Source: Scenedesmus sp. PABB004
Lineage: Eukaryota
Direction of reading: 5' to 3'
DNA length: 64,000 nt
Assembly: GCA_014905635.1 (NCBI GenBank)
Contig: CM026547.1
Coordinates: 3,472,001 to 3,536,000 of the forward strand
Shown: piece by piece, positions 12,133-46,544 of the stretch
Layout of the letters: each line of letters begins with the position of its first letter
How positions within the stretch are numbered: position 1 is the stretch's first letter
Notes under the pieces: model-generated
Told to the model about the DNA's origin: nothing
The model's database searches: none
Seen by the model: the letters and a program-made list of their open reading frames with translations, nothing else
Translations under genes and position numbers: made by a program

Positions 12133-12317
12133 GGCACGGCGGACGCGGCTGTGGCGGCGGCGAGCGCGGCGCTGTGTGCGGTCGGGCGACACGCCTGCCG
12201 CCGTGCGCACCGCGAGCGTTCGCGCACGTTGCAAGCGGCGCACGCCGCCACTCACAGGCACACCTGCCACACCAGACCGCCGCGCTGCGCTGCAAAACCG
12301 CGGGGGCTCAAGCGCGG

Positions 12318-12752
12318 TCACGCCGCGCTGCGCACGGCGCGCGCACCGCCCCCACTCGCGCAGCCCGCGGCGAGGCTGCCGCAGTGCGTGGAGGCGCCCT
12401 CGGGCGTTGCGCCGCCGCCAGTCTCTGGCGTTGCCGCGTCGCCGCTGGCGCCGTCGCCGCCGACGCCGCCGGCTCCGCCATCGTCGCCGCAGCCCGCGCC
12501 CGCGCCCGGCAGCTGCTCGTCCGCGCCCGCGCCCGCGCCCGGCGGCGCGCCGCCGCCCGGCGCCGCGCCCCCGGCGGCGGCGCGCCGTGCAGCTCCACCA
12601 GCTTGAGGATGGCGTCCGCCGCCTGGCGCGCGATGTCCAGCACGCTGGGCAGGTCCCACAGCCCCGCCTCAAACCCGACCGCGAGGATGAGCTGCCCCAC
12701 GCGGTGCGCCGCCGCGAGCGCCGCCGCGCCGACGCCGCCGGCGCCCGCGCCG

Positions 12753-12787
<35 letters not shown>

Positions 12788-13133
12788 GCGCCGCGGGGCC
12801 GCCGCTGGAGCCGCCGCTGGACCCGGCCGCGCCGTCGCCGCCGCCGCCGCCGCCGCGCGCCGCCGCGGCCTCGGCGGCCGCCTCTGCGGCGGCGGCAGCG
12901 GCGGCCGCGCGGCCCGTCTTGGCGAGGTACGCCTCGTTGGCCTCTGCCACGCCCGCCCAGTGGTCGGTGAGGGACAGGTACGCGGCCACGCCGTCGGCGA
13001 GGTCGGCGCGGTCGCCCGAGCGGCCGCTGCCCTCCGCGAGCGGCAGCAGCTCGACCGCGGAGCTCGCCGAATTCTGCGTCCCGCTCTCGCCCGGCGACGG
13101 CCCGCCAAACGCGCCGCCGCCGCGCGCGCGCGC

Positions 13134-13168
<35 letters not shown>

Positions 13169-16100
13169 TCCGCCGCCGCCCGGCGCGCGCGCGGCGGGCG
13201 CTGCCATCGAACCCGCCGCCTGCCCTCCGCCGCCGCCGCCGCCGCCGCCGGCCTCGGCCGCGGCGGCCGCCGCGCCGCCGGGCGAGGCGCCGCTCGCGAG
13301 GTTGCGCAGCGTGGTGTTGAAGCCCTGCGTCTTGACGAACAGCAGGTTGCTGCTCGCGACGGCGTCGAGCTTGTCCGCGAGCAGGCGCACGCCGGCGTAA
13401 GCGTAGTCGAGCGCCGTCATCGCGGCGCGGCGCTGCCCCGCGCGCTGCACGATCTGGGCCTTGGCGAGCTTCGCGCACGCGCGCACGGTGTTGGCGGCCT
13501 CGGTCAGGTGCGCCTTGTAGGCCTGCTGCTTGCTCACGCTCGCGACGCTCACGCCGCCGCTGCCCGCAAAGGAGTGCGCCCACTCGAGGCACTTCATGCC
13601 GGAGGAGAGGTGCAGCAGCAGCGCGCGCACGTCCCAGCCACGGCTCGCCGCGACCTTGGCCGCCGCCGACTTGAGGTTGTACGACTCGAGCTCCAGCGTC
13701 GCCGACGACCTGCGGCGCGCGGGCAGAGCGTGGGCAGGTGCACGGGCGCGCGGGCGGGCGGCGGCGCGCGTGGGTGACGTGGGGCCCGCGGGGCGCGGCC
13801 CGCGCGGGGCGCGGCGCAGCGTGGAGCCCGCCCCAGCCGCGGCGCCGCCGCACTTGAACGAGGGCGTGTCCAGGCTCGAGAGGCTGTGCTGCAGCGCCTC
13901 CAGCGCGACCAGCTGGTACTCGGCCGCGCACTGCCCCGCCTCGACCAGGCTCGCGCGCAGCGACCCGCCCACGCCGCCGGGCGGCGACGCGGGCGCGCCG
14001 CCGCCGCCGCTGGCCGCCGGCGATGCCAGCGGGACCGCGGTGGGCGTGAGGCTGCCCTTGTCAGCGCCGCCCTTGCCGCCCTCGCCGCCCACCAGCAGCG
14101 CGGGCGGGCGGCGCGCGCCCGCCGCGCCGGGCTCGCCGCCGCCGCCGCTGCCGCGGCCGGCCGCCGGCGTCGAGCCCTGGCGGCTGCCGCCGCCGCCGCC
14201 GCCGCCGCCGCCGCGCTGCTGGCTGCCCGCGGAGCCGGCCCGGCTCGCCTCGCCCTGGCGCCGCGCGCCCGGCAGCTGCGGCGCGATGGGCTGCTGCCGC
14301 GCCTGCTCCTGCAGCTCCGCCTCGACCTCGTCGCCGAGCGCGGCGCTGCCGCGCGGCGCGTCCTGCGGCGTGAGCGCCGCGCCGCCGCCGTCGGGCGTGA
14401 CGGCCGCGCCGGAGCGCTCGACGCCGCTGAGCGGGCGGCTCGCGCCGCGGCCGGGCGCCGCCTGGCTGCCCGCGCGCTTGGGGTCGGCGCTGCTGCGCCG
14501 CGCCGCGTCGCCGCCGGTGTCGCCGCTGTCGCGCGGCTCCGAGTCGCGCCGCGCGCGCTTGCCGGCGCGCTCAGGGCTGGCCGAGCCCGCCAGCCCGCCG
14601 CCGCGGCCGGGCTCCGCCGTCTCCCCGCTGCCGGCCTGCAGCAGCAGCTTGGTCTTTGCGTCCCAGCGGTTGCCGTGCCGGTCGTGCACAAAGCCGTCGC
14701 GGCCGCGCCAGTAGAAGAGCGTGGGGTCGGCCGGCGGCGGGTTGGGGCAGTACATGGGGTTGGTGAAGCTGCCCACGCGCACGCCCTCGCCGCCGGGCGC
14801 GCCCGCCGCCGGCGCCGGCGCCGGCGCCGCCGGCGCGCCGCGGCTGTGGTCGCGGCTGCGGCTGCGGCCGCGGCTGCGGCCGCGCGGGCTCTCCCTGCTC
14901 CAGCCCCTGCTGCGCTCGCGGCTGCGGTCGCGGGGCCGCTCGCGGCTGCGCGCGCGGTCGGGGCTCCTGCCGCGCTTGCCGCCCGCCCGCTGCTGCCGGT
15001 CCGCGCTGCTGCTGCTGACGGCGCGCAGCGAAGTGCTGCCGGTCGGCTGCAGCCGCCGCTTGTCGCTCGCGCCGGCGGCGCCGGGCTTCCCCGCCCGGCT
15101 GCCTTCGCCGCCGCCGTCGGCGGCCGCCAGGGCTGCGGCGTCGCCCGAGCTGCTGGCGCGCTTGAGCCGGCTCGGTGGGCGCTGCGACCCCAGCCCATGC
15201 GACGCCTCCTGCGACGGCTGCAGCTGCAGCTTGGCCGCGCTGCTGCTGCGCCCGAGCGGCGGCTTGCCGGCCGGCTCGGGCGTGCGCTCCCGGCCCGCCG
15301 CGCGCTCGCCGGCCCTGCTGCGCTCGCGGCTCCTGCTGCGGGTTCTGCTCCGCTCCCGGCCCCTGCTGCGCTGCCTTGACCGCGCCCGGTCTGCGCTGCG
15401 GCCGCGGCTGGGGCTCCGGCTGTGCCGCCGCCCGCCGCGCCGGGCGCCGCCGCTGCGGTCGCGGCTCACACTGCGGCTGCGCCCCCTGCCGCGCTCGCCG
15501 CGGTCGCGCCGGTTGCTGCCCCGGGGGCTGCGGCTCCTGCTGCGCCGCGGCGGGGTGCGGCTCCTGCTGCGCCGCGGCGGGGTGCGGCTCCTGCTGCGCC
15601 GCGGCGGGGTGCGGCTGCGGCGCTGGCGGCCGTAGCGGCCCCTGGGGCTGCCCGAGCGCGAGCGCGAGCGGTGGCCGCTCCCCGCGCCCCGGAGCCGCCC
15701 GCTCGAGTACTGCCGGCTGCTGCGGTCGGGCTCGGCGCCCCGGCTGCCGCTGCGCCGCCGCGCCCGGCGCTGCCCCGACCTGCTGCGCGACCGAGGCGTG
15801 GCGGAGCGGCTCATGCTCCGGCCGCGTCCCCTGCTCCTGCTCCTGCTCCTGGTCCCGCTGCGCCGCCTGCCCCGGCCCGGCGAGCTGCTGCGCCGCTGGT
15901 CCTGGTGGGCGGGCAGCTGCGACGGCTGCTTTGACAGCTGCCCCTGCAGCTGACCCGACACCGCGGCCGCCAGGGCCGCCGCCGCCGCGGCGGCCAGCGC
16001 CGCTGCGCCCGGCGCCAGCGTCTGCACGGCCGGCACCACCAGCGTCTGCACGGCCGGCACCACCAGCGGCGGCGCTGCCGCGTGCAGCACGGGCGCGCCG

Positions 16101-16720
16101 CCGGCGTCGCCCATCGACAGCATGCTCGGGATCAGCTTGGGCGCGGCCGGCGACGGCAGCGGCTGCTGCTCCGCGCCCGCGTCGCCGACCGGCGACGGCA
16201 GCACCAGCGGCGCCTGCGCGCTCGCCGGCAGCAGCGCCTGCTGCTGCGTCGCCTCGGCGGCGTCAAACTCTGGGCTGCCCGCCTCGTCAAAGGCCGCCGC
16301 GGCGGCCGCCGACAGCTGCTGCGCCTTGCCCGGCGCCGCGATCTTGAACCCAGGCACACCCAGCCGCCCGCCGCGCCCGAGGCGCGACGCGCCCGCGCCC
16401 AGCCGCGGCTGGGCGCCGCCCGCCGCCAGCGACGCGCTGCGCAGCTCGCCCGGCTCCAGCGAGGCCCCCACGCCCCGGCCGATCTCGCCGCTTTCCAGCG
16501 TGGCGCCGCGCCGCGCCGCGAGCTGGACGGCCGCGGCCGCGACGCCCGCGCCGGCGCCGCCGGCGGGGGGCGGGCCGTCCTTGAGCGCCGCAAACGGCGA
16601 CGCCGCTGGCGTCGCGTCGGCGCCGGCGTGCGCCGCGACGGCGCGCAGCTCGCCCTCCTCGAAGGACGGCGCGCCGAGCAGCGCGCCGTCGGGCCGCCCC
16701 GCGCCGCCCGCGCCGCTCAT
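12318..16720 (-). CDS. Large RS/low-complexity nuclear-type protein with a C-terminal helical domain resembling the AF4/FMR2 CHD (plant CWZF THD); apparent frameshifts near the 3' end
   Basis: RSRSRS and RSRTPPR repeats; helical region ESYNLKSAAAKV...LLHLSSGMKCLEWAHSF...AMTALDYAYAGVRLL...GFEAGLWDLPSVLDIARQAADAI; intron ~13711-13851. Confidence 0.65.
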
Positions 16721-17072: not shown

Positions 17073-18079
17073 CGGCGAGGCGCTGGGCCTCGAGCCGGGC
17101 GCTGCGCCGCGATCGCCGCCTCTCGCCGCTGCCGCCGCCCGACGGCGCACGCACGCGCGGCGGCGGCCCGCTGCTGCCTGCTCTGCGTGGCGGTCTGGCC
17201 GTGCCGAACACAGGCCAGCAGCGCGCCGCGTGGCGGCGCGGTGAACCCCGCGCTTGAGCGCACGCCCCGCTTGCCTCGGCGTGCCCGCCCGCGAGTGCTT
17301 CTGCCCGCCCGCGGGTGCTTCTGCAGCACCGCCGTCAACGCCGCCACAGCCAGCACCACCATCACCACCGCGCCGCCACCAAACCGCGGCGCACACCTTT
17401 CGCTCGCTCGCTCGCCCGAGGACCGGGCCCCGCCGCCGCGTGCCCCCCGCCCGGCGGCGCGGCCAATTGTACACACGCCCAAACCAAAGCCCTCGCTAGC
17501 TGCTGCCGCCCAGCACAAACTTGACGACGCGCGCGGCGAAGCGCTGCGCCAGCTGCTGCGACACCTCGCGGACCAGCTGCGCCGCGCCGGGCTGCGCGGC
17601 GAGCTGCTGCAGCTGCGGCATCGACTGCGCCAGCGAGCCCTGCACCGACGCGAGCAGCGGCTGCACGTCCTGCGCCGTCAGCAGCCCAAACGGCCCCGAG
17701 CCCGGCGGCAGCTGCAGCTGCAGCGGCGGCGGCGCCGGCGCACCGTCCGCGCCCGCCGGCGCGAGCCGCGCCGCGACCGTGCTCGCCAGCAGCGCGGCGC
17801 GCGCGGCCGCCTCCTCCTCGCGCGGCTGCACCGGCACCAGCCTGTTGGCCAGCTCCACGTTGTTGAAGCTGCGGCACCGCGGCGGCGGTGGGCGCGCGTC
17901 AGCGGCGGCGGCACCCGTCAGCAGCAGCGCGCGGCGCGGCGGCGCGGCGGCGCGGCGTTGCGGCGGCGCGGCGGAGCCCCCGCGCGTCGCGCCTGGCGGC
18001 GATGCGGTCACGCGCGTTGACGGCCGCGGCGGCGTCGATCATGCGCGCGGCCTCGACCGCGAGGCGGCTGCATATGGCC
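17073..18079 (-). repeat. Direct-repeat copy A: duplicated last exons and 3' flank of the ABC1 kinase gene (5'-truncated fragment)
   Basis: Near-identical to 26411-27381 with scattered substitutions and small indels; encodes [13 protein letters not shown]...[13 protein letters not shown]...[10 protein letters not shown]. Confidence 0.95.
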
Positions 18080-18108
18080 TGCGAGGCCGTGTGTGTGGGG
18101 CGTGACTT

Positions 18109-18313
18109 TGTTACAAGCGCATGTGGCGTGCGGAGGCTTTTTAGGACTCGCGGCAGACTCTTCATGTTCATCCAGTCAGCGAGAACAGCTCACGCATCGC
18201 AGCACGCGCGCAACAGCTTGCGCGGGCAGGTGCCGTGCGCAGCAGGCAGCAGGTATTTGCCAGGTGCAGGGGAGCAGGGCAACAGTCAGCCAGAGTGCTG
18301 ACCTGCAACACGC
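18109..18313 (-). repeat. Inverted-repeat arm 1 (3' UTR of the AUX1/LAX-like gene, with TGTAA at 18111-18115 on the minus strand)
   Basis: Reverse complement matches 22846-23067 (gcgtgttgcaggtcagcactctggctgactgttgccctgctcccctgcacctg...). Confidence 0.85.
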
Positions 18314-18334
18314 GGCCTCCCGGCACCGCCTCCG

Positions 18335-20777
18335 TCAGCAGTTGTAGCACTTGGCGAATACGCCGAAAGACCCGATGCTCTCCACCAGGGCGAGCACAGA
18401 GGCGTAGCCGCCAAAGCCAAAGCCGCAAACGGCCGTGACGGCGATCACCAAGTAATTGATCGCAAACACACCCTTCCATCCGATGAACCTGCGGCGGCAG
18501 ACGGAAGGGGGGGTGGGAGTGCAGCAGGGGAGGTTGTGTTAAGGAGCAGTGGCGAGCGAAGACAGGTGGAGTGCCGGACCGGCACGGCGAGAGCGAGGAG
18601 GTTGGCAGCGGCGGCAGCGCCCGCTAGCTCACTTCAGCGGCTTGAAGAGCGCGCGCGCCTGGCGCTCCGGCTTGCCCTGGTAGTACATGTTGAAGGCCAC
18701 AGCAGGAATGATGTACGTCTGTGTGAAGGGGGCGGTAGATTGAGGAGCGGGGCAGGGGCACACGACGTGCAGGAGCAAGTGAGCGCAAGGTTTAAAGCAC
18801 CGCTCCGCTCCCCCCAGGCTGGCAAAGCTCTAACACTTGGAAGCAGCAGCGCACCTCAAAGGTCACGGCAAAGGCGCCCAGCAGGTCGTTGATCACGCCG
18901 AAGAACGGGACAAGCAGCGCAATGAACCAGACAAACAAGGCGACGGGCAGGCGCGACGGCAGCCTGATCCACAGCGGCTTGGTGTGGGTGCGGCACAGCT
19001 TCTCCCACATGATGCACACTGCAGCGGGAGCAGCGTGGGGTGCGGCAGGCAGGTGTGTCGTGCATAGGGAGCATGGCAGCAGTTGATGACAGCAGCAGGG
19101 CAAAACGGGCAAAGTGAGAGGCCGGGCAGCAGCGCCAGCGCGCTCACCCGGCAGGATGAAGAGCCCGTAGGCCACCAGCTGGTGAGCAACCATCATCACG
19201 ATGCCAACGACCTGCAGGCCGGGTAAAGGCGGCAGAGCAGCAGGCAGCGGCGGGAGGGCGGCCATGAGCACCAGAGGGAGGGCCGCACCGTAGCAGCAAG
19301 CACCCGCGTCATGTCTGCCAGCAGCCGCCCGTGCAAGCGCCCAGCAAGCCCTGCCCGCACCTTGGCCGGCGACTGTGGGAAGATGGCAAAGGCGTTGCCG
19401 TACTTGGCGGCCTCGTCGGGGAAGGCGAGGAATGTGAAGATTGCATTTGGCAACGTGAGGGTGGCGGTCACGTAGAGCAGGGCGAAGGTGAAGGCCTTGG
19501 GGAACTTGCTGGGCCGGAACTGCGCGAGGGGGAGGGAGCAGGTACGTGTCAGCAGCAGGCAAGGCAGGGCAGAGCAGGCAGGGGAGGGCAGGGCAGGGCA
19601 GGGCGAGCAGCCGCAAGGGCAAAGGACAGCGCCAGCGGCGGCGCACACCTGGCTGTCGAGCACCTCCAGGAGCATGCAGTGGCCGCCGAAGCAGAACAGA
19701 ATGTTGGAGAGCCCTGCGTAAGGGCACCAGCGGGGGCAGGAGCAAAAGTCAGTTGGGCTCAGCCACCAGCACGCTCGCGCTCAGCCAGCGCTTCGCCCTG
19801 CCTGCGCTTCCTCTCCGCCTCCCCACACGCCCCCCCCCCCTCCCAACAGTCCCCTTCACCTGCAAACAGAGGCTCCAAGCCCATTGGCGGCCTGGAGGCG
19901 GCGCTGCGGTCGAGCCCGTGGGTCCACGACACCGCCATCATGTACCTATGCAGGGGAGGAGCAGGTCAGGGCGCGGGGGAGAGGAGGGTCAGGGCGCGGC
20001 ACCTGACACGTGCACCCCCAACCAGCCCATGCGCAACGCAGTGTCAAGGCCGACGCCTCATCCGGCCGCGCATGCGCCCCGCGAGGAGGTGAGCGCGTGC
20101 GCACCAGGAGGTGTAGGTGGTGCCCACCAGCGCGAGGAAGGCGAAGATGCGCATGTTCCTGAAGCTCGGCACGAAGACCATGAGGGTCGCGATCGCGCCG
20201 AAGATGAAGGTGAAGTCCCTCTTGTTGAGCCCCGTGCCCAGGGAGTAGAAGTTGGAGGCGGACGCGATGATCTGCGCCACCGCCAGGCCGAGCAGCTCGA
20301 TGATGTTGAAGAAGCGAGCCGTCTCGCCCAGCCAGCGGCGGCCGGTGGTCTCGCGGATGACGTTGTGGTACTGCGTGACGTGCGTGCGCCTGGCGGCCTC
20401 CTTGTCATTGTACCAGGCGCCGTTCTTGAGCTGCAAGCGTGAGTGGGAGATGGGTGGGCGTTGGAGGGCGTGTGGGTGTGAGAGGGCCGTCGGCAGCGAC
20501 AGGTGCAGAAAAGGCGCGGGCTGGGCTGGGGCGGCGCCCCAGCCAGCAGCCGGGGGCCGCGCGGGAGGCGCGGGAGGAGAACCTGCGCGCAGCCCTGTTG
20601 AGCTCTTGGCCCACCCCCGAGCGCCCGCTCACCGCCGTGCGCTTGAACTCGTGGTACAGGGCGGAGAGCAGCCAGAGGGTGTACACGGCGGCGGACGCGG
20701 CCGTGATCTGGAACAGCGTGCCCAGGCCCAGGCCGCACTTGGCCATCGAGTTGGGGAGGTTGAGGATGACTTGGCCG

Positions 20778-20856
<79 letters not shown>

Positions 20857-21322
20857 GGGGGGGGGCAGGCCGCGGTGCCGAGCGCGCAGCAAGAGCAGGT
20901 GGGAAGTGTTGGGGGGAGACAGGCGGCGGCGCCGAGAACGCAGCAAAAAGCAGTGAGAAGAGCGAAGGGCGGCGGCGCACCTGGGCTGACGCGGCCGTGA
21001 GGAAGGCGTCGGCGGGCGAGCCACCCTCCCACAGCAGCTTCTTCCACGCCGGGACCTTGATCAGGCTCTTGGCGGGTGTGCCAGCGGCAGGCACCTCATC
21101 CAGCTCGCGCTTGTCCTCGTACTCGACCAACACGTGTGCTGCGCGGCGACAAGCGACGGGGGCAGGCGTGAGCCTGGGAGCTGCCCCGCGATGCCTGAGG
21201 CTGGCCTGATCTACCACTAGAGCGCACTGGAGCGCCTGCCGCTCCCACAGGGCCCGCCCTGCGCCCGCCGGCATACCGTCAGCATCGTGCACATGTTTGG
21301 AGAAGCTCGTGTCTCGCGCCAT
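18335..21322 (-). CDS. AUX1/LAX-like amino acid/auxin permease (AAAP family), full length, about 11 exons
   Basis: LWEGGSPADAFLTAASAQVGQVILNLP, QIIASASNFY, KRDFTFIFGA, FVPSFRNMRI, TTYTSWY, NILFCFGGH, NAFAIFP, HQLVAYG, RLPVALFVWFIALLVPFFGVIN, GFGFGGYAS, FGVFAKCYNC*; collinear with plant AUX1 motifs. Confidence 0.92.
20781..20852 (+). repeat. (TG)n microsatellite in an AUX1-like intron
   Basis: Direct observation. Confidence 0.95.
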
Positions 21323-21489
21323 GACTCCTGCTTGGATGCCAGCTGCTTGACGAGGAGGCAAGGGTGGGGAGGGAGTTGTTGAAGGCGCCGTTGTGGTCGC
21401 GGGGTGGCAGGACGGAAAGGCGGCCGGAAGGCACGGCCGGCGTTCCTGTATGGAACGCGGACTCGGGCGGCGGCAGGCATCGCCGATGG

Positions 21490-22860
21490 GCGACTGGGAC
21501 TGGGACCAATCACTCTGACCAGCGCGGTGGCGGCGCCGATGCCGCCGCGGCCAGAATGAACCTGACATCAGCACCACCGGCACCCTCACTCCTCACCGCG
21601 CCCCCTTTTTTTCTTGCCTGCGCGCTGCTCCCAGGGTGCGTCGGTACCGCAGACCTGCATCAGGCGCAGCGCCGTGCCCGGCTAGCGCCAGCGCCGGCAG
21701 CGGCAGCAGCGGCGGCCGCGGCGGCAGCGGCGGCAGCGGCGGCAGCAGCCGCGCTCAGGGTGCTGGAGGACAGGGAGGAGCAACAGCAGTCTCGGGGCGG
21801 CCAGGCGGCGGCCAGGCGGCGGGCGGCGGCGCGCACGGCAGCGCAGCAGCGGCGGCACCGGCGCCGGCGGCAGCGGGCGGCGCGCCGATCGCTGCGCGTG
21901 CCCGCCCGCGCACCGCGGGGGCCCCCACCCCGGCCAGCCTCGCTGCGCTGGAGGCGCGCACACGGCCATGAACCAGGTGATGGTCGACGCCGGCGTGCTC
22001 AAGGGTGAGCGCCGGCGCCCCGCGCCCGGCCGTGCCCAGCCGACTGCCCACCGCCGCCGCCGCCGTTCCGCGCAGGCCCGACGCACGCCGACCTCGCCGC
22101 CGCGGCCGCGCCGATTGAGCTGCGACCGGCGCGGCGCACGTGCTCGCCGCCGCGGCGGCGGCCGGGCTGCGCACCGCGGTGCTGTCAATTGATTGGAGCA
22201 CGACGCTGGTGCAGGAGGTGCAGGCCGTGCGTCCCGAGCGGCGCGTGCGGCCCGCTGGCCGCCGCCCTGACCGCGGCCGCTCCCGCGCTGACCGTGGTCA
22301 GGCAGCACCTGGGCCTGCGGGGGCCCGCGCGCGGCATCTCCTCGATCGGCAGCAGCGGCGCGCCAACGAGCTCGTCTGGGACGCCGACAGCGTGAGCGGC
22401 GGCGTCATCGAGCGCCGCGTGCAGTGCGCGCGGGACGAGGGTGCCGCGATGCGGGAGCTGCTGGCCGAGCACCACGGCGGCGGCGCCGGCGCCGGCGCGT
22501 GGTCTACGTCGGCGACTCCGCGTCCGACATCCCCACGCTGCTCGAGGTGCGGCGGTGCCGGCGGTGCGAGGCTGCCGCGCGGCTGCCCGCCGCTGCGCCG
22601 GCAGCCCGGGCCCTGACCAGCCTCTGCCGCGCGCGCCGCGCGCCGCGTGCCGCATGCGCGCCGCCAGGCTGACTGTGGCATCGTCATCGGGGCCAGCGCC
22701 CACATGCGTCGCGTGCTCGCGGCGTTTGGCGTGCCGCTCCGACCGCTCGCCGCGCCGCTCGAGCCACCGGCGGGCGGCGACGAGCGGGCCCGTGGAGGGC
22801 GCGGCGAGCCGCAGCGGCGGCGCCGCGTCGTTGCCTGGCGGCGCGGCGTGTTGCAGGTCA
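21490..22860 (+). pseudogene. HAD-like phosphatase (TH2/thiamine-monophosphate-phosphatase-like) pseudogene
   Basis: Fragments MNQVMVDAGVLKG, IELRP/GAAHVL...VLSIDWS, RANEL, VYVGDSASDIPTLLEADCGIVIG lie in different frames; at least 3 frameshifts (~21960, ~22125, ~22498) not explained by introns. Confidence 0.7.
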
Positions 22861-23222
22861 GCACTCTGGCTGACTGTTGCCCTGCTCCCCTGCACCTGTT
22901 GCCTGCTGCGCACGGCACCAGCCCGCGCGCGTGCTGCGCGCGTGCTGCGATGCGTGAGCTATTCCCGCTGAGCTTTGCCACAAAGCCGCGGGGGCACAAG
23001 AGCTTCAGCATGAAGTTCCCAGTCTGCCGCGAGTCCTATAAAGCCTCCGCACGCCGTAAGCGCTTGCAGGCAGCCCGCTGCAGCAGCGGCGGCGCCCTCG
23101 CGCGCCGCTGCGTGCGCGCGTGCGCTGCCTGAGCTGTTTCAGCGCTGTAAGCGGCAGGGTGAACAAGACGTTCCCAGCCGCGTGCCCTATACGGGCTCCG
23201 CGCGCCACCGGCGCTTGTAACG
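22846..23222 (+). repeat. Inverted-repeat arm 2 plus a degenerate tandem sub-copy, with TGTAA at 23146 and 23216
   Basis: Homologous to the reverse complement of 18109-18313. Confidence 0.8.
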
Positions 23223-23313
23223 AAGCACTCTGCCGCACCCAACCAATCAGCGCTCTCGCGATCGCAACACCACCGCGCAACACTCCGCTCCGCGTCTGGC
23301 CCAGGGCTGCTGC

Positions 23314-24127
23314 CTAGGTCAGCAGCTTGTTGCCAACCTCGGCCTCCAGGGGGATTGTGTCCTGGAAGCCCTCAACGTAGATGCCTCCCCTGGCTCCGGG
23401 CTCAATAGAGTGCCAGAGGTCCTCAAACGAAGGATGCAGGGGGTAGGCGCCGTCCTCGACCGAGGGCGCGATCCACAGGCGCAGCAGGTGGCGGCGCTCG
23501 TCAAAGTCCTGCATAGGCAGGCGGGCGGGCAGGTGGGGCGAGCGGGGCGGTGAGCGAAAGGGAGAAGTGCAGCGCCGCCGGCGGCGGCACTGTTTGCAGG
23601 GCCAAGGGCACTGGAGGGCAGCGGGTGCCGCAGCGCTCGCGTTGCCACACTCACATCGTGGTCCTCGTAGGCCGTGCGGGCGTGCACCTGCGTGTGGTTG
23701 TGCACGAGCTGCAGATCGCCGGGCTGCAGCCAGAAGTCCAGCCTGACCTCATCAGCCACCTCACGGAAGAGCTGCAGCGCTCGGAGCTGCGGTGCGTGGG
23801 GCAAGGGAGGGGATGCAAGGGGGTGATGGTCAGCGTGGGTCCGTTTTGGCAGCACAAGCCAACCGGCGTGGATCCATTTTGGCAGCACAAGCCAACCGGC
23901 GCTCACCTGCTCGTCGGTCAGCCGAGGCACCTCGGGGAAGCGCTCGGCCAGCTGGTAGTATGTGTCGTTGAAGGTCACGGCCAGGTAGCCCTGCAGGGGG
24001 AAGGGAGGAGTTGAGAAGTTGAGTTAGCTTGGCAGAGAGGTGGTCGGGTGGCAGCAGTGCAGCCATGCCCCTGCTCTCCCCTCTTCTCTGCACTTTCCCC
24101 AAGCACAGCCCCCAAAATGCAGACCCT

Positions 24128-24196
<69 letters not shown>

Positions 24197-26177
24197 TGTA
24201 GTAGTGGATGATAGGGAGCACGTTGTAGGGCAGCTTGCCCTCAGGGACCTCGTTCTTGCGGTCCAGGTACCAGGTCGATGCCAGCGTGCGGATGACAGAC
24301 GGGTCGCGCTTGAGCAACTCGTTGTGGATGGTGACGCTGCTGGCGACGCGGCTGAGGCCGCCGCTCTTGGCCGTCTTGAGGCACAGCAGGCCTGGCGGTA
24401 GGGGGGAGAGCAGCAGGGCACGGTCAGTTTACACCATAGGCTCGCGCCCATTGGTCGGGCGCGGGCCAGTGCGGCTGGCGCGGGGGAGAGGATAGCGAGC
24501 AGCACTGCCTTTCAACCTGCGGCGCCGGCAGAGCTGAACGCGGCGAGCGCAGCGCGTGCCAGCAGCCAGCAGCGGCAGCGCCAGCAGGCGGGCAGCAGTA
24601 CGCACCCACGACGTCGGAGCCGTCCACGTGCCAGGGCTGGGCAACGGGCGTGAGGTAGATGCGCGTGGTGGGGTTGCTGTGTGTGGGGTCGACATCGACG
24701 TCCTTGACATGGCTGAGGGAAGGAGGGGGGGTGTGAAGAAAAGGAGTGATGAAAGGGGCAGGGCAAGGGGTGGGCCAAGGAGGGAGCGTATCAGCAGCCA
24801 GCCTGCCCGCAGCACAGCGCAGGAGCGCAAGAGCAGCGAAGCGCAAGCACGAGGAGCTGCAGCTGTAGCAGTGGCACAGCCTAGCAGCTCACCCGATCAG
24901 GTGCGCCTTCTCGTTCTGGCGGCGCGGAGCGCCCCTGCAAGAGCAGCAGTTGGGCAGGCAACCGATCGTACAGCTGAGCCAAGGAGCAGCAAAGGGCAGC
25001 AGCAAACGTGGCGCGCGCGCGCAGCTGGGCAGGATATCCGCCCCAGCTGCCCCCACCCCACTCACGCACACCCACCACGCACCAGTGCAGGCCAATGCCA
25101 TAATAGGCGATGAGCGTCTCCTTGCGGCTCCACCTGTCAACCGGCAGGCCGCGCAGTAGCGCAAAGCCCCTGCCGCGAAGCACCTCTTGCTGCATGCGCC
25201 GCAGCACCGGGCCCAGGGTTGGCAGCTCAAAGTCGTCCTTTGACACAGAGCCCTGCTATTGGGCGTGGTCGGCGTCAGGCGGAGCACGGCGGTGAGAAAG
25301 GCTCCAAACAGGTGTCGGTGGAGGCGAGGCAGCTGCCGGACAGGCACGCGCACGCGCACGCGCATCCTTCCGCTCTGCCCTGCACCCTGGCGCCCGCCTG
25401 AGCTCCCCCACCGAGCTTTACCCACCAGGCTGAGGTAGTTTCCCTCCTGAGTGATGCTCATGCTGGCGAGGATCCTCTGCACGGCGACGTCGAGCTCCGC
25501 CACCTGCTCGGGCGTCACCCGCTCCGCCCACGCGTCAAAGTTGTCCTGGTAGTCCTTGCCGACCCATGCGCTGGGGTCATCCACGATCGTGTAGGGTTCC
25601 ACGGAGCCCTGCCTGCAAGGGCAGGGGGGGGGGGCAGGGGAGGCAAGAGCAGGGCGAGTGAGAGAAGAGAGAGAGAGAGGCCGCGGCGCCGCCGCGCGCT
25701 TGCGCGGCGGCAAGAGAGAGGCCGCGGCGCCGCCGCGCGTGCGCGCGGCGGCAGGCCTGATGCACGCTGCAGCTTGCGGCGAGCTCTCACTTGCTCGTCC
25801 TCAGCTCCACGGGGGCCTTGCCGGGCAGTGGCGGCGGCACCACGCCGGGCAGCGGGCCTGCGAGCGCGGCAACGGCAACATATCGGCTCACTCAAAACTG
25901 CCTGGCGCGCGCGCCGGTCACGGCTCCAGCGCGCTGCCTGATCCTCTGCCGGCCTTTCACGAAAGGCGCAGGGACCCCTGCTTCGCCGTTACCCATCCGC
26001 CAGGGCTCGCGCACCTCCACTCTGGTCGAACGGGAGCGGCGGGAGTGTCTGCCCCTCAGCAGGCGCCATGATGGCCGGCCGGGCGAACAGCGGCCGCCTG
26101 CCGACCCGGCGAGAGCTGGGAATGCACGTGGCAGGGACGCGGAGGGCGCTCGGGGCTGCCCGGGACAGGGCGCGCAT
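23314..26177 (-). CDS. TauD/TfdA-family Fe(II)/2-oxoglutarate dioxygenase, about 10 exons, probable transit peptide (5' exons uncertain)
   Basis: GRGFALLRGLPV, QNEKAHLIGHVKD, QPWHVDGSDVVGLLCLKTAKSGG (HxD), LQPGDLQLVHNHTQVHARTAYED (distal H, R), RHLLRLWI. Confidence 0.9.
24131..24193 (+). repeat. (CA)n microsatellite in a dioxygenase intron
   Basis: Direct observation. Confidence 0.95.
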
Positions 26178-26410
26178 GGCGAGGCTGGGGCGAGGCTCGG
26201 GGGCCCGCTGCCAGCGCAGCGACCAGCGGCGCGTCGAGGGGTGTGCGGCGGAAGGCTTGTGGGGGTGGCGTGGCACGGCCGCGGGCAGAGTGGAGGCCGG
26301 GGCTACGCGTGCCGCGGTGGTGGAACGCGAGGGAACGGCGAAACTTCTCCCTCTGCCCGCGAAACGACCACCTGGGACTTTTTTCAGACGCGGACGCGCC
26401 CTCTAGATTG

Positions 26411-27381
26411 CGGCGCGGCGCTGGGCCTCGAGCCGGGCGCTGCGCCGCGATCGCCGCCTCTCGCCGCTGCCGCCGCCCGACGGCGCACGCACGCGCGGCG
26501 GCGGCCCGCTGCTGCCTGCTCTGCGTGGCGGTCTGGCCGTGCCGAACGCAGGCCAGCGGCGCGCCGCGTGGCGGCGCGGTGAACCCCGCGCTTGAGCGCA
26601 CGCCCCGCTTGCCTCGGCGTGCCCGCCCGCGGGTGCTTCTGCAGCACCGCCGTCAACGCCGCCACAGCCAGCACCACCATCACCACCGCGCCGCCACCAA
26701 ACCGCGGCGCACACCTTTCGCTCGCTCGCTCGCCCGAGGACCGGGCCCCGCCGCCGCGTGCCCCCCGCCCGGCGGCGCGGCCAATTGTACACACGCCCAA
26801 ACCAAAGCCCTCGCTAGCTGCTGCCGCCCAGCACAAACTTGACGACGCGCGCGGCGAAGCGCTGCGCCAGCTGCTGCGACACCTCGCGGACCAGCTGCGC
26901 CGCGCCGGGCTGCGCGGCGAGCTGCTGCAGCTGCGGCATCGACTGCGCCAGCGAGCCCTGCACCGACGCGAGCAGCGGCTGCACGTCCTGCGCCGTCAGC
27001 AGCCCAAACGGCCCCGAGCCCGGCGGCAGCTGCAGCTGCAGCGGCGGCGGCGCCGGCGCGCCGTCCGCGCTCGCCGGCGCGAGCCGCGCCGTGACCGTGC
27101 TCGCCAGCAGCGCAGCGCGCGCGGCCGCCTCCTCCTCGCGCGGCTGCACCGGCACCAGCCTGTTGGCCAGCTCCACGTTGTTGAAGCTGCGGCGCCGCGG
27201 CGGCGGTGGGCACGCGTCAGCGGCGGCGGCACCCGTCAGCAGCAGCGCGCGGCGCGGCGTTGCGGCGGCGCGGCGGAGCCCCCGCGCGTCGTGCCTGGCG
27301 GCGATGCGGTCGCGCGCGTTGGCGGCCGCGGCGGCGTCGATCATGCGCGCGGCCTCGACCGCGAGGCGGCTGCGTATGGCC
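26411..27381 (-). repeat. Direct-repeat copy B (3' end and flank of the intact ABC1 kinase gene)
   Basis: Near-identical to 17073-18079. Confidence 0.95.
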
Positions 27382-28506
27382 GCTGCATTGTCGCTGAGCA
27401 GCCAGGCGCCGAGCAGCCAGAGCTGGCCCGCGTCGAAGTCGGACGACTTGCTGCCCTCGCGCACCAGGTTCTCCAGCCGCGACCACCGCAGCGCGCCGTC
27501 CTGTGCGGGTGTGCGCGTGGGTGTGTGTGGGTGGGGGGCGCGGCGCACACCGGTCGTCGGCACGAGCGCGCGCGCCGCGGCGGCCGCGCCGTGCGAGGGC
27601 TCGCGCCGCCCCCACCGGACCCCACACTGTTTCCTCTCCCCCCCCCCCCTCCCACCCTCGACACCCACCCACACCCTCCACACCCACCCTCCACACCCGC
27701 CCGCCCACACGCACCTGCATGACCAGGTCCTCAAAGCTCGCGCGCAGCTCGGGCGCTGGGTCGGTGAGCAGGCGGCGCGCGATGTAGGGGTACGCCCGCC
27801 CCAGCAGCTTGTACCGCGGGTCAGCCTGGCCGTGTCAAAGCAGGCGCGGGCGGGGGAGGGAGGGAGGGAGGGAGGGGGGGGGGCATGAGCGGCGCGGCGG
27901 GGGAGCGCCGGCGCGGCGCCGCGGCGTGCGCGCGCGGCGGCGCGCGCGGCGGCGCGCGTGCGGCGCGTGCGCGGTGGCGCGTGCGCGGTGGCGCGTGCGC
28001 GGTGGCGCGTGCGCGTGCGCGCGCGCCTGCAGCGCGAGGCCCTCCAGCACGGTGAGGCTGCGCAGGATGAGGGCATAGTAGGCGGGCACCCTGCGGGGGG
28101 CGGGGGGGGGGGGCAGGGGTGGGGCTTAGGGCATAGGCGGCCCGCGCGCGGGGGCGTGGGGGCCTGACGACGCGCCGCCTCCCCTCCCTCCGTCCCTCCT
28201 TCCCTCCCTCCTTCCCTCCCTCCTTCCCTCCCTCCCTCATCACCCCCCCTCATCTCTCCCCCGCGCGGGCGCCCGCCCCGCGCGCCCCACCTGAAGGGGT
28301 ATGCAAAGAGCACCGCGCCGAGGCCGTCCACGATGGCCTTAAAGTTGAGCTCCGCCACGCTCGCGTCGAGCACGTCGTCAAAAAAGGCGCGCAGCGCGGG
28401 CGCGATCGGCGCGGTGTCGATGGCGGGGTCCATGAACTGCAGCGTGTAGTAGTCGCGGCACATCGCCTCATAGTCCCTGCGCGCGCGCGTGCGTGCGTGT
28501 GCGTGC

Positions 28507-28602
<96 letters not shown>

Positions 28603-31261
28603 TGGTGGGGGGGGGGGGGGGGGGGGGGGGGGCGGCGGTGGTGTGACGAGCGCGTGTGACGAGAGGGGGGCCGCGGGCGGCGGGCGCGTGGGGGTGGCGG
28701 CCCGCCCACCTGTTGACCAGGTGCACCACGTGGGCCATGATCGCGTAGCGCGCGTACTCGGGCGCAGACGACATCATGCTGCACAGCACACAGCACGCAG
28801 CACGGCGGGCGGGCCAGGCGGTGGGGTCAGGCGGGGCCGGGCGGGGCCGGGCGGTGCGGCTGGCGGCGCGAGTGCGCGCGGCGGGCGGGCATGTGTCCCC
28901 CCTCCACACGCATGCACGCACAAGCACGCACACGCACACGCGCGCACACACACACAGCTGCAGACACGCACACAGGCCCACACCCCGCGCCCCCGCCCAC
29001 ACCCCGCCGCCGCACCCAAAGTCCAGGTAGACCAGGCTGCCGTCCGGGGAGGCGAGCAGGTTGCCGGGGTGCGGGTCGGCGTGAAAGTAGCCGTGCTCGA
29101 GCAGCTGGCGGGCGCGGGGGCAGCGCGGGCGCGCGCGAGCGGCGGCGGCGTGCGGGCGGCGTGGGCGCCGCGGCAGCGCGCGCGCGGGGTGCGCGCGCGG
29201 TGCGGCGCGCGCGCGGCGGCGCGCGCGCGGGGTGCGCGCGCGGTGCGCCGGTGCGCGGCGCGCGCCTGGCGCAGTGTGCACTCAATGCCAACGTCCACAA
29301 AGTCGATGATGTCCAGCCCCGCCGCGTCCATCGCCTCCTGCGCGACCACACGCGCACACGCACACACAGCGAGAGAGAGAGCTTAGCAAGGCTGCGTGCG
29401 CGGCGCGGCGGTGCGGCGCTGCGCGGCGGTGCAGCGGTCGTCCGTCGCGGCGGCCCAATCCCCGCCCCGCGGCGCGGGTCGCGGGTCGCGCCTTGTTGGT
29501 GAGCTTGACGCCGTCGATCCACTCCATGGTAAGGACGCGGCGCCGCGTGGCCCCCCAGTAGATGCCCGGCGTGCGCACGCGGGCCATGCCGCCGTACAGC
29601 TCCTGCGCGGCGGCGGCGGGGCGCGGGGCGACCCCGGCAGGGGCGGCTGGCCGCCGCGCCGCCGCGGTCGCAGCCGCGCGCGCCGCGCGCGCGCACGCCC
29701 CCCGCGCCTCCCTGCTCGCGCGCGCGCGCCTGGAAGCGCTCCGCGTTGCGCCCCTCCGCGCAGTAGTCGAGCTCCGCGAACAGGCGGCCCGCAAACTCGT
29801 CGACGAGCGGGACGAGCGGCTGGCTGATCTGGGGCAGGCTGCGGTCGACCGCGGCCATGAGGCGGCGCAGGAGCAGCATGTCGACGGCGATGCTCTCCCC
29901 GATGCCGGGGCGCTGCACCTTGACCGCGACGACGTCCCCCGTCTCGCGCAGGACGCCCTTGTACACCTGCTTGAGCGGGCGGGCGCAGCGGGCGGTGAGC
30001 GAGCGCAGGGAGCAGCCTCGTCGTGTGCAGGCCTGGCGCGCGCAGGCCTGGCGCGCGCCTGCGGCACGGCCGCCGCGACGCCGGGCCCGCGCGCGTGCGC
30101 GCGCGCGCGCGTGCGCGCGCCTGTCCGAGGCTGGCCGCCGCGACGGGCTGCTCGCTGAGCTGGTCGTACACGGAGGCCACGGGCACGCCGAGCTCTTCCT
30201 CGATGACCGCGTACGCGATCTCGTTCGGGAAGCTGGGCAGGCGGTCCTGCAGCTCGCTGAGCGCGTCGAGGTACTCCTTGGGCAGCAGGTCGGGCCGCGA
30301 CGACAGCGCCTGCCCGATCTTGGTGAACGACGGGCCCAGCCCCGACAGCAGCCGGCGCAGCTCGGCCGCGCTGCGCGCGCCGCGGCGGCGGCGCCGGCGG
30401 CGGGTGAGCGCGCGGCAGGGCGCGCGCGGGCGCGCGCGCGGGAGAGCAGCGCCGGCGCGCGCGGGAGAGCAGCGCGCACCGCTTGGCCGCGTTGGCGTCG
30501 AGCTGCCCCAGCGCAAAGTCGCGGCCCACGCGCGCGATGAAGCCGCCCAGGCTCGCGGCAATGCGCACGGCGCGGCCGTACACCTGCGGCGCGCGGCGGC
30601 AGCGGCGGCGCTCGGCGCAGTGCGCTCTGCGCTGGCCGCGCCTGGCGCGGCCGGCGCTGCCGGCGCCCCGACCGGCCGGGCCCCGCCGGGCCCCCACCTG
30701 CGGCCACTTGCTGGCGAGCTGCGCGGCGAGCTTGTCTGGGTCGTAGCTCACGCCCATCTCTATGAGCAGCTGGGGCAGGTCGGGCGTGAGCGTGTCGAGC
30801 TCCATCGCCTCCACCCAGTCCCGCTGGCCTGCGCGCCGGCGGGGACGGGCAGCAGGGGGCCGGCAGCAGGGGCGGCGGCGGCAGGGCGGGGCGTGAGGGG
30901 CCGCCACGGCGGCCCCAGCGGGCTGCTCCACAGGCTGCTGCGCGCCCGCCCGGCGCGGCTGCAGCGGCGGCGGCGCAGTCGCCGTGGCCCGCGCGCGCGC
31001 ACCGCTCTCCGTGAAGAACCAGTCGGCGGCCCGGTACTCGGGCGAGACCATCAGGCTGTCCACGCTCTGCAGCGGGCTGTCCGCGACCACGCGCGAGGGC
31101 GTGCGCACGCGGGCCGCGACCGCGCCGCGCCGCTGCTGCTGCCGCGCGCCGCCGCCGCTGCCGCCACAGCGCCGCCCCGGCGCGCCGGCCATGGGCGTGC
31201 CGGGCGCTGATGCACGCCCACGGCCCACCCGCGCGGCCTGCGGGGGCCTGGTGAGCAGCAT
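26814..31261 (-). CDS. ABC1/UbiB atypical kinase (ABC1K family, probably plastid), multi-exon
   Basis: [95 protein letters not shown]. Confidence 0.95.
28511..28632 (+). repeat. (TG)n microsatellite followed by poly-G in an ABC1K intron
   Basis: Direct observation. Confidence 0.95.
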
Positions 31262-33608: not shown

Positions 33609-33933
33609 CCCGTGCGCGCGGCGGCACTCTGCGTGCGCGCGGCTGCTGCGATTATGCAGCCCCGCGACAGAACTGTGATGCGGGGGTGGTGTGTGCGTGA
33701 ATCTCGTCCTCTCTCTGCGTTCGCACGGCGGCGGCGCCCGGCGGCGGCCGGCGCGCCGAGCCCTGGCGGTGCAACGCGCGCTCGACGCTGCCGCCGCAGC
33801 CAACGCAGCCGCCGCGCCCGCCCCCGCCGCGCCACAGCGCTGCAGCCGCGGTGTGCGCTCGCCTCCGCCGCACCGTCGCCGCGAGGGCAGGCCGCACGGG
33901 GGCGCCGTGCCCGCGCTCGCCGCGCCTGTGCTC

Positions 33934-34695
33934 ATGGCAGCAGCAGCGGAGCCGACCAGCCCTGGCGGACGCGCGAACACGACGAGCAAGACCATCACCG
34001 ACACCATCGTCGGTGAGGCGCGGCCCGGCGCGCGCCGGGGGGCGCGTGGGGCGGCCCCCGACCCCGCCGCGACCCCGCCCGGCCGCAGGCGAGCACACAC
34101 ACACCATCGTGGGCTACAGCCTCATCAAGGGCATCGGGGATGGCGAGCCCATCGCCAGCGAGCGCTTCACCGTGGGCGGGCACGAGTGGGTGAGCGATGC
34201 GGGCGCCCCCCGGCGCCCACGCGCCCTCCCGGGCCTGCCCGGCGCGCGTCACGCGTGCGGAACGGAGCTGCCTACCTGTCAGCGCGGGCGCAGCGCGCCA
34301 GCTGCCCGGGGAGGGCCGGGAGGGGCGACCTTGGCACGGCATGCCCAGCGACAGCAGCAGCAGGCGCCGCGGCGCGCTCCGGGCCGCCACTGCAGCGCCC
34401 CCGAGGCGGCCCCGCCCCTCTGACACCGCCCGGCGCGCCGCCACCCTCGCAGGTGCTGCTGTTCTACCCCGACGGCAAGCGCAGCAGCAGCAGCGACCCG
34501 CAGCTCGGCCCCGGCGACGCCGTGGCGATGCACCACGCAGCCGCGGCGGTCCCGCAGGCGGGCCTGGTGGTAGGCCAGGCAGCGCCGGGCGCGGCGGGCC
34601 TGCCGGTCGTGCAGCAGCACGGCGGCGGCGCGGGCGGCGCGGCGGCGGGCGCGGCGGCGGCGGCGGCGGGCGGCGGCGGCGGCGGCGGTGGCGGC

Positions 34696-34734
<39 letters not shown>

Positions 34735-36356
34735 GCTGGCGGCGGCGGCGGCGGCGGCGGCGACGGCGAGCCGCCCGGCGGGCCGCCGGGCCTGCCGGCG
34801 GGCATGGTGCAGCACCACGCGCACGCGGCGGGCCTGCCCGCTGCGGCGGCGATGCAGCTGGCGCGCATGGCGCCGCCGGGGCGGCGCGACACGACCAACG
34901 AGTACGCCGCGCTCTTTGTTGCGCTCATCGGCGAGGGCCCCAACCCGCAGGGCGTGGTCAACACGAACGAGGGCAAGGTCGTGCGCGCGTTCCACCGCTT
35001 CACGCTCGTCGACCAGACGGGCCAGGGCCGCGACCTCACCAAGGGCCGCACGCGCGAGGCGGGCGCGGTCAAGATCAGCTGCGCGCGGCAGGACCCCAAC
35101 GCGCGCAACTGCCACGGCTACCGCAAGTTTGTCAAGGTGGCTCGCGCGGCGCGCCGCCGCAGCGCTGCGCTGCACAGCGCAGCGCCACGCCGCGCGCGCC
35201 GTGCCTCACCCCCGCCGCCGCCACCTCGCCCCCTCGCAGCGCAACATCCTGGAGGACCCGGCGCGTGGCTTCCTGATGAACGACACGATCATCATCAAGT
35301 ACACCATCGAGCTCGTCGTCTCCAGCGGCGGCGCGCTCAGCCGCAGCAGCGGGCCGAGCAAGGCGGAGCTCATCAAGGTCCCGCCGCCCTCCATCGGCAA
35401 GGACCTCGGCGAGCTCTTCTACTCGGGTGCGCGCGGCAGCGGGCTGGCAGCAGGGCGCAAGCGCGCAGCGGGCTGGGCGCGGCGCGCGGGGCGCAGCGGC
35501 GGGCAGCGCGCCCGCGCCCCCCGCGCGCCCACGCGCCCGCGCGCCGCGCGCGCCCTCGCGCGACAGGCCAGAACAGCGACTACGTGGTGGTGGTGGAGCA
35601 GGAGGGCGAGCAGGAGGAGATTCACGTGCACCGCATGCTGCTCGAGGCGCGCAGCCCCTTTTTCCGCGGCATGCTCGAGTCCAACATGGCCGAGGCGCAG
35701 CAGGGGCGCTACGTCGTGCGCGACATGCTGCCGCCGGTCGTGCGCGCGGTGCTGTACTTCATTTACACCGGTGCGTGTGGGTGTGGGCGGGCGGGTGGGG
35801 AGCGGGGCTGGGGTGCTGCCGGGGCCGCGCGGTGCCGGCCGCGCCGCCGCGCCGCCGCCCGACGCCCGACGCCCGCGCCGCGCCGCCGCCGCCCGCTGCC
35901 GCGGGGCGCGCAGACCAGCTGCCGGAGGAGCTGGAGGGCGCCAACCTGGAGGTCGCGATGGCGCAGCACCTGCTCGCCGCGGCCGACATGTACCAGCTCA
36001 CACGCCTGCGCCGCATCTGCGAGCGCCGGCTGTGCGAGAGCGTGGACGTGGAGACCGCGGCGACGACGCTCGCGCTCGCGGAGCAGAACCACGCGGAGGA
36101 GCTGAAGCGCGTGTGCCTCGACTTTGTGTCCCGCAACCTCGCGGCGGTCATGCAAACGGACGGCTACCGCCACATGACGCGCAGCTGCCCCAGCCTGCAG
36201 GCGGAGCTGCTGCAGGTCATCGCCTCCACCGGCGCCGCGGCGGGGCACGACCGCGCGCACGGCGGCGCGCACCGCAGCCACGGCGGCCACGTGCGGCGCC
36301 TCGGCGACGTCGAGGCGGCCGAGGAGCGCCGCGTGCGGCAGCGCCGCAACGAGTAG
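33934..36356 (+). CDS. BPM: BTB/POZ-MATH protein (BPM/SPOP-like CUL3 adaptor)
   Basis: GYSLIKGIGDGEPIASERFTVGGHEW, FYPDGK, FTLVDQTG, GYRKFVKR, LEARSPFF, HLLAAADMYQL, TTLALAEQNH. Confidence 0.93.
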
Positions 36357-46107: not shown

Positions 46108-46544
46108 TGGCGGGCCTGGGCCAGGCCTGGGCGAAGCCTGGGGGGCCCGCGCGCTGGCAGTGCTGGCCAGGCACGGCGGTCCTGCAAAGCGAAACCTCGT
46201 GCGTGCCACGCAGCGCCCCCCCCCCACTTCCGACAGCCTCGGCCGTCCTGTCACTGGCCACCGCGGCCACCGCGCCTCCTCAGGGCAGCAGCAGCACGCG
46301 CCGCCATCACCGCGCCGCCGTGCGCACGGCCTGCCCGCCCGGTCGCGTTGGCCGCGGCCACGCGGCGTGTTGCATCTGCTGCCGTGCCTGCCGGTCGCTG
46401 GAGCCTGCGGTCTCGCGCGCAGCCCATGCGCCGTTCGCCGCGCGCAGCGGCGGCGGCCGGCGGCCCTGCAAGCCACCTGGCGGCATGCGGCTGCTGAAAC
46501 CTGGCGGCCCGCGCCACCACGTCTGCATGTCGGTGGCTGCTGCC

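Follow-up and report, generated by a model that had tools for sequence, protein, structure and literature searches.

How did two nearly identical copies of the 3′ end of one kinase gene come to lie on either side of two other genes? This question is raised by a 64,000-nt stretch of DNA without any N from Scenedesmus sp. PABB004 (contig CM026547.1, positions 3,472,001 to 3,536,000), here called the window. Within it, a pair of direct repeats of about 1 kb, each carrying the tail of an ABC1 atypical kinase (ABC1K) gene, brackets an island (18080-26410, 8,331 nt) that holds an AUX1/LAX-like permease gene and a TauD/TfdA-family dioxygenase gene. Tentatively, we read this as a nuclear locus of a very GC-rich (GC, guanine plus cytosine) sphaeroplealean green alga that was reshaped by the repair of a DNA break or by replication template switching. 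The explanation to which we lean, though not firmly, is that the permease and dioxygenase genes were already in place when about 1 kb of the ABC1K tail was copied into a break beside the permease. It looks like a rearrangement of an ordinary kind with an instructive compositional contrast, and not like a new kind of mobile element.

The repeat pair itself was described correctly in the initial annotation, a reading of the sequence alone, as near-identical copies of the ABC1K 3′ end and its downstream flank. In a self-BLAST of the window, 17073-18079 and 26411-27381 align in 1007 columns at 95.1% identity (13 mismatches, 2 gap openings, E = 0), which corresponds to 98.66% identity across 971 aligned bases; in a repeat search the same pair appears as three in-register blocks with offsets of 9338, 9318 and 9302. 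This identity is far beyond chance. All but one of the mismatches (12/13) are transitions, each of the indels (20 nt and 16 nt) is a change in the units of a short local tandem repeat, and the borders of the repeat are sharp on both sides. The repeat starts inside the penultimate ABC1K exon, 25 codons ahead of the exon end, and continues through a 108-nt stretch and the last exon to 403-423 nt beyond the stop codon. The 108-nt stretch is absent from ABC1K orthologues; it could be either a lineage-specific insert or an intron of the GC-AG type containing branch-like CTGAC motifs.

The two copies, both on the minus strand, differ in what surrounds them. The right copy (26411-27381, 971 nt) is contiguous with the upstream ABC1K exons and forms the live 3′ end of the gene. 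The left copy (17073-18079, 1007 nt), with the stop codon at 17496-17498 and 423 nt of downstream flank, is a detached 3′ end that continues into the 5′ side of a gene for an Arg/Ser-rich (RS) protein and has no upstream kinase exons. In the left copy, moreover, Cys replaces a conserved Arg and Val a conserved Ala, whereas the right copy keeps the residues found in 5/5 aligned orthologues. Because the upstream exons are missing and two orthologue-conserved positions carry non-conservative replacements, the left copy is probably a dead gene fragment, and it should not be annotated as a gene. It also carries the 16-nt insertion, which was considered as a frameshift; this argument is weakened by the absence of the affected stretch from the orthologues, as that stretch may be an intron.

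With 1.3% mismatches the duplication is young. The mismatches are distributed unevenly along the repeat, with 2 in the first 150 nt, none over the following 522 nt and 10 in the last 340 nt, and a mismatch-free run of 522 nt was reached in 0.08% of permutations (P = 0.0008). Gene conversion between the copies would account for such a clean core, although it could be due to uneven mutation as well. The core is likewise compatible with the recombination between the repeats that the initial annotation had envisaged as a route to excision or amplification: a plausible outcome of recombination between the copies would be the deletion of both island genes, leaving an intact kinase gene.

An A-B-A layout of this kind arises either way, by insertion of B with duplication of its target A or by copying of A to the far side of B. 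The course of events that we infer, with its direction, its repair mechanism and the later gene conversion, is as follows. At the outset, the RS-protein gene would have been separated from the ABC1K gene by the permease and dioxygenase genes. The DNA would then have broken immediately beyond the permease poly(A) signal, and repair would have filled the break with about 1 kb of sequence templated by the ABC1K 3′ end at a distance of 9.3 kb, in other words a templated insertion or dispersed duplication. From then on, the kinase gene would have kept its working end in the right copy, with the left copy as a dead fragment; the copies would since have exchanged sequence by gene conversion and could in principle delete or amplify the intervening DNA.

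Templated insertions and dispersed segmental duplications, which are attributed to synthesis-dependent strand annealing (SDSA) or to fork stalling and template switching/microhomology-mediated break-induced replication (FoSTeS/MMBIR), resemble this locus in several respects. Nearby DNA is copied in direct orientation to a site a few kb away, with sharp borders, there is no element-encoded enzyme, and a further small duplicated piece lies at the same point. The locus differs from them in that 1 kb is at the long end for such filler and that the direction of copying is here deduced; at its junctions, we found no convincing microhomology above the chance level of 80% GC DNA. If the reading is true, the locus would be a further example of young structural rearrangement in an algal genome that is dense in genes and extremely GC-rich, with a dead gene tail and 1-kb repeats able to delete or amplify two intact genes. 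The locus is also a natural marker for strain differences.

The further duplicated piece is part of the permease 3′ untranslated region (3′UTR), and it speaks for the copying of the 1 kb in two ways, by its position and by its age. Its left arm (18092-18316, minus strand) belongs to the permease gene and includes the TGTAA signal at 18115-18111, the sole minus-strand TGTAA near the left junction. The signal lies 31 nt from the junction at 18079/18080, in agreement with the roughly 30 nt stated in the initial annotation. The right arm (22843-23241, plus strand) is a copy of the permease 3′UTR in sense orientation with TGTAA at 23146 and 23216. Between 18316-18115 and 22843-23065, 170/182 aligned bases are identical, and the score of the terminal block 18120-18092, which contains the TGTAA, against 23210-23241 was reached in 4/2000 shuffles. 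The left arm ends 12 nt from the left 1-kb repeat (spacer 18080-18091), so that this second small pasted piece abuts the repeat, which suggests that local DNA was inserted here, or directly beside this point, on more than one occasion. As the inverted copies differ by ~6.6% and the direct repeats by 1.3%, the inverted duplication within the island would be the older one, and the locus has probably been rearranged at least twice. Local duplication is common here, as the window also holds a young pair of photolyase genes that are 96% alike. Within the right 3′UTR copy, 23030-23215 consists of two ~145-nt units, each ending in GCGCTTG, and the left copy has one; the left copy thus looks like the right copy minus one unit.

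Base composition adds a point that goes beyond the initial annotation. Outside the island, 1-kb windows have a mean GC content of 0.783 (standard deviation 0.026, minimum 0.714), whereas the values are 0.662 for the permease body and 0.655 for the dioxygenase gene. This contrast is partly due to amino acid content, since conserved ABC1K exons also reach 0.64-0.78. However, the neutral classes of sites differ as well. GC at third codon positions is 0.91 in the permease and 0.86 in the dioxygenase, compared with 0.95 in both the ABC1K and the RS gene, 0.96-0.98 in the photolyases and 0.93 in a BTB-domain gene, and pooled intron GC is 0.684 and 0.667, respectively, compared with 0.82 for ten ABC1K introns. 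In non-coding and third-codon composition both island genes differ from every other part of the window, which argues that they have a history apart from that of their neighbors. The island is nevertheless not one compositional unit, as 21600-22828 has a GC content of 0.80, like the flanks. The GC steps are sharp at about 18080, 21600 and 22830, and the rise from 25600 to 26410 is gradual. The intron contrast of 0.67 versus 0.82 offers a handle on the pace of GC enrichment in such genomes.

Several of these observations weigh against the copying of the ABC1K tail next to resident genes. The compositional contrast means that the permease and dioxygenase genes arrived in the neighborhood at some time, and the left GC step coincides exactly with the junction of repeat and island. 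The gene order in relatives points the same way. In Hariotina reticulata, the AUX1-like gene (model 5826, which is fused to HEAT and LPMO_10 parts that are both absent from the window) is not adjacent to the ABC1K gene (model 10322), provided that model numbers follow genome order, and in Monoraphidium minutum the AUX1-like and ABC1K homologues lie on different contigs, although the match there (75%) may be a paralogue. Both are other genera; the non-adjacency would fit a move of the permease within this lineage. Left of 17073, the sequence showed no homology beyond chance to the sequence after the right 3′UTR copy (61/500 shuffles). Finally, small templated insertions are the commoner event in general, but the polarity assigned to the event rests on such priors. 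The idea that the left repeat was inserted into a longer inverted repeat was discarded, as no homology beyond chance extends across the left repeat.

The strongest competitor is the proposal of the initial annotation, a recent insertion of the multi-gene island with a very long target duplication. The ABC1K and RS genes would once have been neighbors, and the 8.3 kb would have entered through template switching or at a break whose ends were offset by 1 kb, duplicating the 1-kb target. The flanks are continuous in the way that such an event predicts: removal of one repeat copy and the island leaves two intact genes, ABC1K and RS, 776 nt apart, which bears out the simple gene order that had been deduced. 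The youth of the duplication, the outlier composition of both genes in non-coding and third-codon positions, the fact that the left GC step falls on the repeat border and the separation of the AUX1-like gene from the ABC1K homologue in Hariotina and M. minutum are also what it would lead one to expect. Yet nothing shows that the 8.3 kb moved as a piece. The island is composite, with its GC-rich middle resembling the flanks and a gradual change at the right border, and the ages do not match, since the inverted 3′UTR copies predate the direct repeat. All that the compositional contrast implies is that neither gene is an ancient resident, and the synteny evidence, from other genera, with an assumed model order and a possible paralogue, is weak. 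To our knowledge, moreover, kilobase-long target duplications around multi-gene inserts that lack a transposase are rare. We therefore regard the insertion as a possible but rather doubtful event, and not as the best-supported reading. In its strongest form, the two genes would be a recently acquired, transposase-free cassette from a less GC-rich genome or compartment, brought in by break repair with a kilobase target duplication and able to loop out as a circle. This is very improbable; if it were true, algae would have a means of moving small sets of metabolic genes, and an empty site in relatives would make the locus matter more, as a documented transposase-free multi-gene insertion.

The layout could also be due to the assembly, with the copies being alleles or strain variants of one 1-kb stretch between which the assembler threaded the island. 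A difference of 1.3% is within the allelic or strain range, and the public data that contain this DNA are low-depth metagenome contigs of a relative (95-99%) only. Against such an artefact, which we consider improbable, unique sequence with genes adjoins each copy on either side, the borders are sharp and there is no N, the mismatches are clustered and not evenly spread, and haplotype collapse or duplication alone would not place 8.3 kb of unique sequence between the copies. Least probable of all, and very improbable, is a Campbell-type integration, in which a circle bearing the island and a single 1-kb copy underwent recombination with the 1 kb in the chromosome, and from which the reverse reaction would release the circle. 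A single crossover of a circle with a homologous target yields exactly A-B-A, and the identical 522-nt core indicates that interaction between the copies is possible. However, the window offers neither a source of such a circle nor a gene for replication or for a recombinase, the island has no further copy in it, and the circle would need the island to have stood beside the 1 kb beforehand, which is what the copying of the ABC1K tail next to resident genes proposes anyway.

Mobile-element features were looked for as well. The initial annotation stated that no transposase is visible, and this stood: none of the 61 stop-to-stop open reading frames (ORFs) of at least 90 amino acids that overlap 18080-26410 matches a transposase, integrase or reverse transcriptase family (Pfam, E ≤ 0.01), a scan that shorter or intron-split genes could escape. 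There are no terminal inverted repeats or long terminal repeats, as 401-nt pieces from the island ends match nothing at the opposite end; the left end matches only the internal inverted 3′UTR copy. Further copies of the island ends, for which the initial annotation had suggested a search of the genome, are absent from the 64 kb of the window, and no tRNA gene was found in its 12-32 kb section. The direct repeats of host sequence around a gene-carrying segment do resemble the target-site duplications of transposons and of integrated foreign DNA, in that the repeat copies would represent the once uninterrupted target. They differ in length, at ~1 kb compared with a few bases, and in the lack of a transposase, integrase or reverse transcriptase, of terminal repeats and of other copies in the window, around a segment that is compositionally composite. 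Judged by these sequence features, the locus is not a mobile element.

Public metagenomes gave a glimpse of the locus in a related strain. The runs listed as holding this DNA were two, both from a single freshwater-metagenome study (with shares of 0.25 and 0.16); no RNA run was among them. The contigs are short, low-depth pieces of a relative with 90-99% identity; those listed lie almost only in the low-GC genes and none of them reaches 17073, 18080, 26410 or 27382, with reads fitting both repeat copies excluded. Among the contig joints listed, none skips ~9.3 kb, and those with long skips are anchored by only 20-23 letters per side within GC-rich DNA of low complexity; no conclusion is drawn from these absences. 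One contig joins 22846 to 18316 on opposite strands, with a short side of 202 letters. At face value, and as a lead only, the related strain would have the permease inverted and convergent with the dioxygenase, and the low-GC blocks contiguous. The joint could be a chimeric path, because both 3′UTR copies share a 51-nt block (50/51 identical) and the depth of the contig is low.

Inversions with inverted duplications at their breakpoints, for which a staggered-break model has been described in Drosophila, offer a parallel. Here, the permease and the high-GC core are flanked by inverted copies of the permease 3′UTR, and the contig of the relative joins the last permease exon to the right-hand copy in opposite orientation. 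The difference is that just one breakpoint region is duplicated here and that the contig is possibly chimeric. Such an inversion would explain the inverted 3′UTR pair, not the direct 1-kb pair.

Some further observations were made on the same contigs. In both runs, one contig matches to the right of 21528 and has ~255 unrelated letters to the left, while other contigs cross 21528 collinearly; nowhere in the window was the 30-nt consensus left of 21528 in the relatives matched, even with 3 mismatches allowed. Summed contig depth at 27582-28215 is 116-139 in both runs, compared with 0.2-9 in the other bins, and probably reflects low-complexity GC-rich repeats shared with other organisms. A scan of the metagenome contigs with the ABC1K tail peptide encoded by the repeat gave 599 pattern matches and 0 relatives, and a scan with the permease alignment gave 3 loci with 36% identity on contigs of ~50% GC with no TauD or ABC1K gene nearby; neither scan bears on the gene order in close relatives.

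The permease gene is encoded on the minus strand, with a mapped coding part at 18335-21139 that comprises at least 6 exon blocks and ends with a TGA stop at 18337-18335. Four minus-strand ORF pieces match Aa_trans (PF01490), two at or above the gathering score (36.8 and 25.7 versus 25.6 bits; profile positions 11-162) and two more weakly (22.2 and 15.3 bits; positions 198-219 and 311-359). Among the solved structures in the PDB, the permease exon matches only LAX3 (E 1.9e-19) and AUX1 (E 1.9e-18). The exon is 79% identical to a Hariotina reticulata model and 69% to a Monoraphidium minutum protein (P0002), which is full-length and matches AUX1 residues 43-490 (E 7e-91), again with only AUX1 and LAX3 matched in the PDB. 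By these structure matches, not by a subfamily tree, the permease is nearer to AUX1/LAX than to other permeases of the family. The transporter call of the initial annotation thus agrees with the profile and structure matches, and the gene may be called AUX1/LAX-like, with import of indole-3-acetic acid (IAA), an auxin, as a prediction at most. The likeness to the AUX1/LAX auxin influx carriers of plants is that these alone were matched among solved structures; the difference is that the present gene comes from a unicellular chlorophyte, with auxin as a putative substrate. According to PMC10015382, AUX1/LAX homologues occur throughout green lineages, so that the permease gene in itself is not unusual.

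The second island gene, also on the minus strand (23314-25240), encodes an FrbJ-like enzyme in 6 mapped exon blocks. Two ORF pieces match PF02668 (TauD) at 31.9 and 31.2 bits, above the cut-off of 27, and a third reaches 17.1 bits. All six blocks align to an intron-free homologue (P0007) that matches FrbJ at E 2.8e-36, and the four blocks free of intron read-through are 73-79% identical to it. The exon translations contain WHVDGSD and HNHTQVHARTAYED, aligned with the homologues, which we take to hold the iron-binding His-x-Asp ... His residues of the TauD/TfdA family. The gene is thus assigned to the TauD/TfdA Fe(II)/2-oxoglutarate dioxygenases, which likewise accords with the initial annotation. 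From their predicted exons, both island genes are intact and of green-algal type, and a search of viral contigs gave no viral relatives of either. Upstream of the dioxygenase, 25251-26410 has an intermediate GC content of 0.715 and holds a 41-nt tandem pair and a G run.

Between the two genes, the high-GC core (21600-22828, GC 0.80, plus strand) had been annotated as the remnant of a HAD-type gene. Faint traces were indeed found, with LSIDWSTTLV at 22182 and VVYVGDSASD at 22499, but the two motifs are in different frames and every profile remained below its threshold (PF12710 at E 0.069 with 14 bits versus a cut-off of 27; TIGR01488 at E 0.14). The core has neither a HAD-family profile match nor a DxDxT motif I, the motif-I-like stretch being DWSTT in a frame other than that of the GDSxxD stretch. 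At best, the trace would be a remnant.

The gene to the right of the island (26814-31051, minus strand) is of the chloroplast aarF/ABC1K type. PF03109 matches 4 of its ORF pieces, and eleven exon blocks (31051-26826) align with Tetradesmus obliquus OEZ85_008638 and Hariotina reticulata model 10322; identity to the Tetradesmus protein is 72-94%, with 51% and 55% in the two end blocks. This domain and the collinearity with named orthologues place the predicted product among the ABC1/UbiB atypical kinases. With a pooled GC content of 0.82 and values of up to 0.945, the ABC1K introns (27504-30436) exceed the exons (0.64-0.78), whereas the opposite is usual. To the left of the island, the large RS-protein gene (12308-16720, minus strand), delimited from its translation with the first Met of the long ORF at 16720, matched no Pfam family. 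A representative search returned 24 relatives, of which the 10 looked up were all Logan, JGI or ENA fragments, and conserved blocks, for example around FTNPMYCPNPPP...FYWRGRDG, recur in algal fragments.

Elsewhere in the window, a BTB/POZ-domain ORF lies at 33679-36102 on the plus strand and an ABC_tran ORF piece at 51595-53520 on the minus strand. The photolyase/cryptochrome gene is present in two near-tandem complete copies (46503-48810 and 49408-51699; 96.2% identity over 2319 columns), both with DNA_photolyase and FAD_binding_7 domains. Long (GT)n/(CA)n microsatellites occupy introns of the permease (20781-20943), the dioxygenase (24131-24194) and the ABC1K gene (28480-28712), and these produce most of the inverted-repeat pairs in the repeat search.

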